DNA from: Escherichia phage teqskov
DNA length: 64,000 nt
Sequence record: NC_054934.1
Direction: 5' to 3' (one strand)
The translations under genes were made by a program, and so were the position numbers. The notes beneath the pieces were generated by a model that had not been told where the DNA came from, searched no databases, and worked only from the letters and a program-made list of their open reading frames with translations. Positions within the stretch are counted from its first letter, which is position 1. Every line of letters begins with the position of its first letter. This document shows, one piece after another, positions 17,404 through 19,859 of the stretch.

Positions 17404-17697
17404 ATGATTCTTTATGCTAAAGTATCATCCATTGAAAATGGATATAAATATGATCAAGAAGCAGCTAAAGCCTTGATTGATGATTATGGCATTTTAACAT
17501 GTTTTGAAGTTGAAAAGGTTTACATTGACCGTTCATCTTCTCAGGTTAAATTAGTGAAGGAAGACCGTAAATTTAATACAGTAAATTTTGATTTCTTTAT
17601 TGAAACGGAAAAAGGTCCTCTTGAATATGATATTTTCAAGAATCCTTTGGGTCTTGAATGTATTGAATATACTTACATTAATATGGTGAGCAAATGA
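17404..17697 (+). CDS. hypothetical protein
   Basis: 97 aa ORF, tight spacing. Confidence 0.5.
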   Translation: MILYAKVSSIENGYKYDQEAAKALIDDYGILTCFEVEKVYIDRSSSQVKLVKEDRKFNTVNFDFFIETEKGPLEYDIFKNPLGLECIEYTYINMVSK

Positions 17698-18209
17698 ATA
17701 TTTGTTTAGGTACTACAATTCCACAGGGTTACGTAATTGATGTCACTACCTGGGAAAATGATGGTGACAACTATAAAACTAAAACACTGTTTGGCGTAGA
17801 AGAGCATGAAATCTTACAATTCCAATATCTTTTAAAGAAGTTTAAAAGCAGACATTCTAGTACTAAAGCTGAACGTTATTGTGGTAATGGCTTGTTCAGC
17901 GAGCAATCGCTTTTTATTTATGAATACTTGGTTGAAGGACTGTTCTCAGAACAACTTTATCCAGAATTCATTAAAAAGGTCTTTGATATAGAAGTTGACC
18001 TTGGTAATAAATCCGAAGAAGACGAAGAACGCATATTTGACTTATTCTTTGTGAATGGTAATAAAGTGCTTGAAGGACTTATTAATATTTTAGGTAATGC
18101 TTCTGAGTATTATGATTATGATTTTTTGCGTGTAGTTGAGAGTGTTAAATACTCTTATATAGAAGAAGAAATTGTTTTGCCGACCGTTAAAATGTTTAAT
18201 TTGCTTTAA
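17694..18209 (+). CDS. hypothetical protein
   Basis: 171 aa ORF overlapping previous stop. Confidence 0.5.
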   Translation: MNICLGTTIPQGYVIDVTTWENDGDNYKTKTLFGVEEHEILQFQYLLKKFKSRHSSTKAERYCGNGLFSEQSLFIYEYLVEGLFSEQLYPEFIKKVFDIEVDLGNKSEEDEERIFDLFFVNGNKVLEGLINILGNASEYYDYDFLRVVESVKYSYIEEEIVLPTVKMFNLL

Positions 18210-18295
18210 GAATTATTTGTTATTATTAACTCATACCGCACTGATTAATACCCTCTATCATCAAGGGTTCTTGTTTGAGAGCCTTTGTTAATAAT

Positions 18296-18368
18296 TGGGA
18301 ATTAGCCAAGTTGGTAAGGCATAGCACTTTGACTGCTAGATGCAAAGGTTCGAGTCCTTTATTCCCAG
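18296..18368 (+). tRNA. tRNA-Gln (anticodon UUG)
   Basis: cloverleaf read by hand: acceptor tgggaat/attccca, anticodon loop cTTTGac, T-loop ttcgagt. Confidence 0.8.
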
Positions 18369-18369
18369 C

Positions 18370-18456
18370 GCGAGAATGGTCAAATTGGTAAAGGCACAGC
18401 ACTTAAAATGCTGCGGAATGATTTCCTTGTGGGTTCGAGTCCCACTTCTCGCACCA
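18370..18456 (+). tRNA. tRNA-Leu (anticodon UAA), long variable arm, CCA encoded
   Basis: acceptor gcgagaa/ttctcgc, anticodon loop cTTAAaa, T-loop gggttcgagtccc. Confidence 0.8.
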
Positions 18457-18461
18457 AATTT

Positions 18462-18535
<74 letters not shown>

Positions 18536-18545
18536 ATTTAATTTA

Positions 18546-18619
18546 CTCCGTGTAGCTCAGTTTGGTAGAGCGTCTGCTTTGGGAGCAGAATGTCGTAGGT
18601 TCAAATCCTGCCGCGGAGA
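18546..18619 (+). tRNA. tRNA-Pro (anticodon UGG)
   Basis: acceptor ctccgtg/cgcggag (one G-U), anticodon loop tTTGGga. Confidence 0.75.
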
Positions 18620-18621
18620 CT

Positions 18622-18711
18622 GGAGGCGTGGCAGAGTGGTTTAATGCACCGGTCTTGAAAACCGGCAGTCGCTCCGGCGACTCATAGGTTCAAATCCTAT
18701 CGCCTCCGCCA
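18622..18711 (+). tRNA. tRNA-Ser (anticodon UGA), long variable arm, CCA encoded
   Basis: acceptor ggaggcg/cgcctcc, anticodon loop cTTGAaa. Confidence 0.8.
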
Positions 18712-18716
18712 GTTTT

Positions 18717-18792
18717 GCTGATTTAGCTCAGTAGGTAGAGCAGTTGACTGTTAATCAATTGGTCCATGGTTCGAATCCATGCATGTCCGCCA
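18717..18792 (+). tRNA. tRNA-like gene, probably chimeric or defective (anticodon position reads GUU)
   Basis: normal D, anticodon and T arms, but 5' acceptor gctgatt pairs with 3' catgtcc at only 3 of 7 positions. Confidence 0.5.
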
Positions 18793-18918
18793 AACTTGTG
18801 ACAGTTGTCACATTAATATCTACTTGACGCGATTATAGGGGTTGAACTGATCACACTTCTCTTAATTTCGTGTGAAGACATCTTGATTGTTGGAGTAGGT
18901 ATTGCTGTGAACTAATTA

Positions 18919-18995
18919 CGGGGTGTAACTCAATTGTATAGAGTAGCGGTCCTCTAAACCGCAGGTTAAAGGTTAGAATCCTTTCACCCTGACCA
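18919..18995 (+). tRNA. tRNA-Arg (anticodon UCU), CCA encoded
   Basis: acceptor cggggtg/caccctg, anticodon stem gcggt/accgc with loop ccTCTaa. Confidence 0.75.
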
Positions 18996-19016: not shown

Positions 19017-19571
19017 ATGAGAAGTGATGTAGACTGGGACCAAATTAATTTGGCTATAAAAGCTGGATTAATATACCATGGTAATTTTGAAATAACACAA
19101 GAACTAATTGAAAATGTTGCTTTTCTTAAAATAACAGATAAGAAAAAATTCTTTTCTATGACTGAAGCCAAACGCTTGTCAAAATGGAAAGTATTTTGTA
19201 GGACTGCCGCCCTAAATCTTTTGAAATTTAAAGATGAATTTGATATAGAAAAAAGCTATCGACAGGCTTTCGTATACATAATGGTAGATACTACAAATCC
19301 TAATTATTATAAAATAGGAAGAAGTATAGAACCTGATGTTAGAGTTATAACAGCAAATACATTTTCACCGTTTAAAAGTTTTAAAATAGTATCATTTAGA
19401 TATTCCCAGGATGCAGTAGAACTTGAAAAATATATGCACAGCATTTATAATCAGGACCATATAAATGGTGAATGGTTTTTCTTTCATGACATAAGTTCCA
19501 TAGTTAAAAAATTAGATACTAAATCTACACAATTTGAAATACCAAATGAGAAACCGGGTCGCTACCGGTAA
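19017..19571 (+). CDS. T5orf172 / GIY-YIG-related domain protein
   Basis: 184 aa; segment VYIMVDTTNPNYYKIGRS ... R ... E..Y.H ... GEWFFF fits the T5orf172 pattern; no N-terminal GIY-YIG as in segB. Confidence 0.55.
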   Translation: MRSDVDWDQINLAIKAGLIYHGNFEITQELIENVAFLKITDKKKFFSMTEAKRLSKWKVFCRTAALNLLKFKDEFDIEKSYRQAFVYIMVDTTNPNYYKIGRSIEPDVRVITANTFSPFKSFKIVSFRYSQDAVELEKYMHSIYNQDHINGEWFFFHDISSIVKKLDTKSTQFEIPNEKPGRYR

Positions 19572-19859
19572 GTCGTCGGACTGATGTTCCCTGAGTAAGG
19601 AATTGCGTTAATAATCTTTGCGTTTATTGATGCCCTCTTACATCACAGCAGAAACGGCGCACCGAATTATCGATTCGAGGAAATATCTTTGCCGTAAGCC
19701 GAGTAGCGTTTTTGACGGAACGTTCGGATATGGTCGAGATATGGCCTTTTAAAAATATTGAGTAGCGTCAACTACTTAATAACCGGGTTCAAGTCCCGGC
19801 GTTTCGTACAAACACTTGCCTTAGCAGGTGGAACCCCGACAAGGTTGCCGCAAGGCTTA
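19572..19859 (+). ncRNA. probable stable RNA region (T4 species 1/2-like), boundaries not resolved
   Basis: non-coding, GC-richer, contains tRNA-like T-arm ccgggTTCAAGTcccgg; same position relative to tRNA-Arg as the T4 stable RNAs. Confidence 0.35.

Follow-up and report, generated by a model that had tools for sequence, protein, structure and literature searches.

A chimeric tRNA-Thr::tRNA-Asn element, probably a pseudogene left by a deletion, in the tRNA operon of Escherichia phage teqskov

We analyzed a 64,000-nt stretch of Escherichia phage teqskov (NC_054934.1; the whole stretch is referred to below as the window), which carries a Tequatrovirus (T4-like) tRNA operon (Table 1). The window belongs to a distinct phage, with ~96–97% identity to the best records over tens of kilobases; over the tRNA stretch, its closest relatives are BCH953P2 (99.9% identity) and REP2 (98.3%). 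Five tRNAs (Gln, Leu, Gly, Pro and Ser) are followed by a 76-nt tRNA-like element, a 126-nt spacer and tRNA-Arg. ARAGORN called these six tRNAs and nothing between Ser and Arg, and all six are full-length matches to the Rfam tRNA model. Their acceptor stems are paired at 7/7 positions each, with one G-T wobble apiece in Pro and Arg, in agreement with the initial annotation of this DNA, which had described them as perfectly paired.

According to PMC2330249, transcription of the T4 tRNA cluster starts at a middle promoter located just upstream, yields a single precursor and ends after species I RNA. In the window, a candidate promoter of this type lies ~70 nt upstream of tRNA-Gln and overlaps the stop codon of an ORF at 17694–18209; it is not listed in a generic sigma-70 scan. 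The distal side is occupied by homologues of rnaD and rnaC, which mark the distal operon end in the T4 annotation; no Rfam family was found at gathering score at 19546–19808. In T4, tRNA-Arg abuts rnaD directly, whereas in the window a 184-aa ORF follows tRNA-Arg, its 3′ end overlapping the rnaD homologue by 26 nt. The ORF is 100% identical in BCH953P2 and contains a T5orf172/MUG113 domain, which we take to be a relative of GIY-YIG nucleases; the ORF resembles an insertion of the mobile-nuclease type into the tRNA operon. The 126-nt spacer is 94.9% identical to that of phage Sf21 over 117 nt (tRNA-His is next in that phage) and is predicted to form an imperfect hairpin of ~100 nt (18808–18910, −31.9 kcal/mol, z = −2.1).

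Table 1. Features of the teqskov tRNA operon, with positions in the window and the basis of each assignment
Feature	Position	Strand	Basis
Candidate T4-type middle promoter: MotA-box-like TGCTTTA, 12 nt, TATTAT	18202..18226	+	By eye against the MotA-box consensus
Gln(TTG), Leu(TAA), Gly(TCC), Pro(TGG), Ser(TGA): five intact upstream tRNAs	18296..18711	+	ARAGORN (starts, in this order: 18296, 18370, 18462, 18546, 18622); full-length Rfam matches; acceptors 7/7
Chimeric tRNA-Thr::tRNA-Asn, probable pseudogene, 76 nt	18717..18792	+	Thr 1–26 plus Asn 26–75 of BCH953P2; local Rfam match; no ARAGORN call
Thr-specific part: 5′ acceptor strand GCTGATT, then TAGCTCAGT, Thr-only A17 (18733)	18717..18733	+	Identity to tRNA-Thr of T4 and BCH953P2
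Crossover interval GGTAGAGCA: 9-nt exact repeat common to the Thr and Asn D arms, one copy kept	18734..18742	+	Last Thr-specific base 18733, first Asn-specific base 18743
Asn-derived part: anticodon arm (GTT), variable loop, T arm, CATGTCC, G73, CCA	18743..18792	+	Equals Asn 26–75 of BCH953P2; no REP2 difference in the alignment
27 bp that fit the preferred site of the SegB homing endonuclease, GGTTCGAATCCATGCATGTCCGCCAAA	18768..18794	+	GGTTCRANTCC, CCAR, G6/A16/G18/A26/A27 as given in PMC2330249
126-nt spacer, Asn 3′ end to tRNA-Arg, untouched by the deletion	18793..18918	+	100% identical in BCH953P2 and REP2
tRNA-Arg(TCT), intact	18919..18995	+	ARAGORN (start 18919); Rfam full length, 60.7 bits
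184-aa ORF directly after tRNA-Arg, T5orf172/MUG113 domain	19017-19571	+	Pfam E 2.6e-9 and 3.4e-6; phrog_5032
rnaD homologue (species 2)	19546-19663	+	blastn, 99.2% identity to T4
rnaC homologue (species 1)	19670-19808	+	blastn, 97.8% identity to T4

The gene order in the relatives is Ser-Thr(TGT)-Ile/Met(CAT)-Tyr(GTA)-Asn(GTT)-126 nt-Arg. This is part of a 10-tRNA arrangement, which the annotations of REP2 and Sf21 list and which ARAGORN recovers in three relatives. The region has matches in hundreds of phage records; the best ones all match in two pieces, spanning 1009–1023 bp compared to 761 bp in the window. A three-way alignment of the window, BCH953P2 and REP2 contains a single clean gap in the window, where 248 bp are missing if REP2 is the reference and 262 bp if BCH953P2 is. 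The missing interval holds the 3′ part of tRNA-Thr, tRNA-Ile, tRNA-Tyr and the 5′ part of tRNA-Asn. The two sizes differ because BCH953P2 has 14 extra bases in its Ile-Tyr spacer. As a side observation, this 14-nt insert relative to REP2 (locus ~920–940) creates a run of 12 G (GAATTAGGGGGGGGGGGG), which may be a homopolymer sequencing artifact in the BCH953P2 record.

The order in T4 is Ser-Thr-Ile-segB-Arg, and its annotation contains neither a Tyr nor an Asn gene. The initial annotation had proposed that the Thr and Ile genes expected from T4 were replaced by a single hybrid. The replacement by one hybrid stands, but four genes (Thr, Ile(CAU), Tyr and Asn) rather than two were replaced, since the proper reference is the 10-tRNA arrangement of the relatives and not T4. 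With these genes went the tRNA functions Thr-UGU, Ile-CAU, Tyr-GUA and Asn-GUU, four in all, leaving the phage with six tRNAs.

The element reads GCTGATT TA GCTC AGTAGGTA GAGC A GTTGA CTGTTAA TCAAT TGGTC CATGG TTCGAAT CCATG CATGTCC G CCA. Its positions 1–26 are those of tRNA-Thr of BCH953P2 and its positions 27–76 are positions 26–75 of tRNA-Asn of the same phage, with zero other changes; T4 tRNA-Thr starts with the same 26 nt as well. The Asn gene differs from the Thr part in its 5′ acceptor strand (GGATGTG) and in lacking the A at position 17. By direct count, the D, anticodon and T stems of the element are fully paired (4/4, 5/5 and 5/5, respectively). The anticodon loop CTGTTAA is of 7 nt with a GTT (Asn) anticodon, the T-loop TTCGAAT fits TTCRANT, the discriminator is G73, and CCA is encoded. 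All that the initial annotation had described from the letters is found at the positions given: an element with perfect D, anticodon and T arms and CCA is present between tRNA-Ser and tRNA-Arg, and the suspected resemblance of its 5′ 26 nt to T4 tRNA-Thr proved to be an identity. The different tRNA to which the sequence from the anticodon arm onward had been ascribed is tRNA-Asn(GTT), and the exact Thr and Asn halves confirm a recombinant between two tRNA genes.

The junction is located in the D arm. The D arms of tRNA-Thr and tRNA-Asn share 18/19 nt, in the form of TAGCTCAGT and GGTAGAGCA separated by the Thr-only A, and the BLAST pieces against BCH953P2 overlap at 18724–18742. As the Thr-only A (18733) is kept and the sequence is Asn-specific from 18743, the exchange took place within GGTAGAGCA. 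Of the exact repeats between tRNA genes of an intact cluster, the 9-nt block TAGCTCAGT is one of the longest, with GGTAGAGCA forming a second common 9-nt block. However, other repeat pairs of the cluster are as good or better (Pro/Ser, 13 nt; Pro/Asn, 12 nt), and repeat quality alone therefore fails to explain the choice of the Thr/Asn pair. Composition from two genes, a junction in their common sequence and the absence of the intervening genes, as expected for a hybrid tRNA gene, are all found here. Since the fusion consists of exact halves of functional genes that are joined within common sequence, the two-gene state must be ancestral and the fusion derived from it through deletion; the reverse is not plausible.

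The element has no acceptor stem. In the canonical register (positions 1–7 with 66–72), GCTGATT and CATGTCC form 3/7 pairs (G1-C72, A5-T68 and T6-A67), the count also given in the initial annotation; random sequence is expected to give ~2.6/7, so that the pairing is at chance level. The mismatches (C2/C71, T3/T70, G4/G69 and T7/C66) are all non-wobble, and those at 2-71, 3-70 and 4-69 are consecutive. An exhaustive search of 35 × 50 registers (5′ starts 18690–18724, 3′ ends 18785–18834) identified no alternative 7/7 stem. Shifted stems with 6/7 matches were rejected, as their geometry is incompatible with a tRNA; nor are they meaningful, since they involve leader and trailer flanks that the relatives have to the same extent next to their intact Thr and Asn genes. 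A covariance-model search, which had been suggested as a way to reveal a valid stem with shifted boundaries, found none: the Rfam model RF00005 matches locally at 18724–18781, covering model positions 8–63 of 71, with 51.2 bits (whole-window E = 4.6e-8). In the relatives, the intact genes for Thr and Asn score 71–75 bits at full length, placing the element ~20–24 bits lower. The local match indicates a tRNA-like core far beyond chance and a genuine absence of the acceptor stem. When folded to its minimum free energy, the 76-mer does not adopt a cloverleaf (z = −0.9).

The 3′ end of the element also contains a putative SegB site. The preferred SegB site is described in PMC2330249 as a 27-bp sequence with GGTTCRANTCC at its 5′ end and CCAR at its 3′ end, in which G6, A16, G18, A26 and A27 make the Asn site the preferred one. 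Every listed diagnostic feature is present at 18768–18794, as checked against this published description. The same paper states that in clusters without segB almost all tRNA genes are cut by SegB at their 3′ ends, with weak sites at Met/Ile and Tyr. As the preferred site at the Asn 3′ end is intact in the hybrid, the deletion would give no protection against SegB, and we infer that segB could still home readily into this phage and would overwrite the scar in doing so.

The junction was not found elsewhere in the collections searched. The exact junction 37-mer has 0 matches in IMG/VR, JGI metagenome contigs and GTDB genome contigs, and a 131-nt BLAST query across the junction gave two-piece matches only among 50,697 phage records; an identical tRNA in related phages, which the initial annotation had proposed to look for, is thus absent from these collections. 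In IMG/VR, a collection too poor in Tequatrovirus for a survey, the Thr 5′ half was found in 5 contigs and the Asn 3′ half in 3, all of them with normal full-length genes. Rfam searches of 13 related loci identified no other truncated or chimeric tRNA, with all matches being full length except one that is cut by the locus end. Clusters of this type vary frequently in nature, but in another manner, with ORFs, often endonucleases, taking the place of whole genes (segB in T4; an HNH ORF plus a segB-type ORF in Pu-Krd-SF7; an ORF instead of Thr in T2). The irregular clusters among the relatives (T2, F26, Pu-Krd-SF7 and pSe_SNUABM_01) show such whole-gene replacement and not fusions. The arrangements observed in these four clusters include an HNH endonuclease ORF at the usual place of tRNA-Gln, a 666-bp segB-type ORF after Tyr that replaces Asn, and ORFs or inserts that replace Thr. 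Partial tRNA remnants were not detected at the replacement sites of any of the four. In the vB_Eco_F26 record, the annotation-table coordinates and the positions given by ARAGORN and Rfam on this locus differ by 383 nt, and tRNA-Gly is absent from the deposited annotation.

We conclude that the element is a chimeric tRNA pseudogene, a deletion scar inside a phage tRNA operon, and assign this reading a probability of about 0.87. The ancestor would have carried Ser-Thr-Ile(CAU)-Tyr-Asn-spacer-Arg. Pairing of the direct repeats in the Thr and Asn D arms, followed by exchange inside the 9-nt GGTAGAGCA, would have removed ~248 bp, comprising Ile and Tyr in full, the 3′ two-thirds of Thr and the 5′ third of Asn, and left one copy of the repeat. 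Possible triggers are slipped-strand mispairing, unequal recombination in replication, or UvsX-type short-homology repair of a double-strand break located in the interval. We infer this mechanism from the sequence, in which break repair and spontaneous slippage are indistinguishable. A structural driver of slippage was considered and rejected, as the single-stranded DNA fold of the deleted interval is modest (z = −1.96) and equals what tRNA genes give anyway. UvsX-dependent minihomology joining in T4 generates deletions that range from 17 bp to 18 kb, have short repeats at their borders and are located in non-essential regions, according to Wu et al. (mBio 2021; PMC8262927), where the joining repeats were as short as 3–4 nt (6–8 nt in the examples) and the deletions followed Cas9 or Cas12a cuts. 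The tRNA region of T4 is described as non-essential in PMC2330249.

By analogy with T4, the chimera is almost certainly transcribed as part of the operon precursor, since the T4 cluster gives one precursor and the window has a MotA-like promoter upstream and the rnaD and rnaC homologues downstream. The hybrid joins the Thr 5′ acceptor strand to the non-complementary Asn 3′ strand and would thus form no acceptor/T-arm helix. RNase P, CCA-end handling, AsnRS and EF-Tu need this helix, and unprocessed defective tRNA precursors are normally degraded. The RNA is most likely non-functional as a tRNA, a dead, unprocessed and degraded by-product that is probably unstable. The absence of decay and the three perfect stems would fit a constrained functional RNA too, yet they are uninformative on selection, since the local region is almost invariant among the relatives: 3 mismatches to BCH953P2 in 553 nt predict <1 change in 76 nt. 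Dating the deletion by decay was likewise uninformative, given this local near-invariance between phages that are otherwise ~3% diverged.

A working tRNA-Asn with an unconventional acceptor end is highly improbable. The element does keep the GTT anticodon, G73 and CCA, which are the main identity elements for AsnRS, and its perfect D, anticodon and T arms form a core of 51.2 bits against the tRNA model. However, non-wobble mismatches occupy 4/7 acceptor positions, including three in a row, with zero alternative registers, rejection by ARAGORN and a predicted fold that is not a cloverleaf; furthermore, the sequence is the exact sum of its parental halves and shows no compensatory change. Only slightly less improbable is a stable tRNA-like RNA in a non-translational role, either as an anticodon stem-loop decoy for tRNA-targeting nucleases or as an operon RNA similar to rnaC and rnaD. 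Such an RNA could draw on three intact hairpins and possibly on retained D-loop/T-loop contacts, in an operon that already yields stable non-tRNA RNAs (the rnaC and rnaD homologues), and phage tRNAs are known to counter tRNA-cleaving defense systems (PMC11555353). Against this, the element occurs in one genome only among the collections searched, adaptation after the fusion is not seen, and a deletion by-product explains the element fully.

The origin of the deletion leaves more room for an alternative. A double-strand break within the Thr-Asn interval, introduced by a SegB-type homing endonuclease, CRISPR or a restriction nuclease, may have been repaired through short homology at the D-arm repeats and the survivor fixed by loss of the target. 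We regard such a selected deletion as unlikely, though it is the most credible of the alternatives. A break-induced route via SegB from a co-infecting T4-type phage is plausible because the weak SegB sites at the Met/Ile and Tyr 3′ ends, which SegB cuts according to PMC2330249, lie between the repeats and inside the deleted interval. T4 is also reported to evade nucleases in non-essential regions through repeat-flanked deletions of this type (PMC8262927). In addition, related clusters are rich in endonuclease ORFs, and the window itself has the T5orf172-domain ORF beside tRNA-Arg. On the other hand, retention of the preferred SegB site means that the main cut of this enzyme would not be escaped, and this cut lies outside both repeats, where annealing could not give the observed deletion. 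The sequence favors neither break repair nor slippage. That the fusion is non-neutral, whether as a selected nuclease-escape deletion or as a stably expressed tRNA-like decoy or regulator with the Asn anticodon stem-loop and elbow, appears improbable to us; if true, the phage would serve as nature's own test of why Thr, Ile, Tyr and Asn genes are present in T-even phages. Similarly improbable is an artifact or minority variant, with an assembly error, PCR chimera or template switching at the D-arm sequences concealing a real phage with an intact 10-tRNA cluster. The uniqueness of the junction, with no exact match in IMG/VR, metagenome or genome contigs and no one-piece match among the phage records, would be consistent with such an error, and template switching at short repeats is a known amplification artifact. 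Yet the exact repeats, of 9 nt each, are far shorter than assembler k-mer sizes, so that an assembler would not be expected to collapse them. The deletion also resembles biological repeat-mediated deletions in being precise and in register, and a phage lacking this dispensable region would be viable.

A deletion-derived pseudogene has practical consequences for annotation. tRNA finders skip the element and covariance models half-detect it; the best label for it is pseudogene, and the tRNA count of the phage should read 6, not 7 or 10. The element is also an illustration of the fragility that similar D arms in tandem tRNA genes confer on a cluster. The codons of the lost tRNAs are heavily used in the ORFs of the window (per 1000: AUA 12.1, ACA 18.5, UAU+UAC 46.6 and AAU+AAC 60.4); in E. 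coli, the usage of AUA is ~4–5 per 1000. Retron-Eco7 degrades host tRNA-Tyr, which phage T5 overcomes with its own tRNA-Tyr (PMC11555353). Heavy use of the matching codons, together with the role of phage tRNAs in countering tRNA-cleaving defenses, suggests by analogy that the deletion may cost fitness on some hosts. The phage represents a natural four-tRNA knockout in an otherwise typical Tequatrovirus, and comparison with REP2 or BCH953P2 could test codon supply and protection from defense systems.

The teqskov fusion resembles the T4 minihomology deletions (PMC8262927) in being precise, in lying in a non-essential region and in leaving one copy of a short repeat, with 248 bp falling within their size range; it differs in its longer homology (9 nt exact, 18/19 overall), and the T4 deletions arose after deliberate Cas cuts. 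Compared to a canonical tRNA (RF00005), the element has the D, anticodon and T arms with the TTCGAAT loop, the discriminator and CCA, but lacks the acceptor stem, and the covariance model aligns positions 8–63 only. As in T2L, RB1 and RB3, segB is absent between the Asn-derived element and tRNA-Arg, where only the 126-nt spacer is found; in T2L, however, the SegB site is part of a functional tRNA-Asn, whereas here it is part of a probable pseudogene. The closest parallel is provided by T4 deletion mutants, reportedly described by McClain and Foss in 1984, in which the 5′ part of one tRNA gene was fused to the 3′ part of another through common sequence; these are said to be laboratory mutants of the eight-gene T4 cluster. 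The teqskov element is a natural new example of this known kind, a repeat-mediated deletion giving a hybrid tRNA gene in a T-even tRNA cluster, and as an ordinary event it does not overturn current understanding. It shares with the T4 hybrids, as reported, the operon, the genus, the 5′/3′ tRNA fusion and the end-points in common sequence, and differs from them in its natural-type genome, its 10-tRNA ancestry, the participation of tRNA-Asn, which is not in T4, and the removal of four genes.
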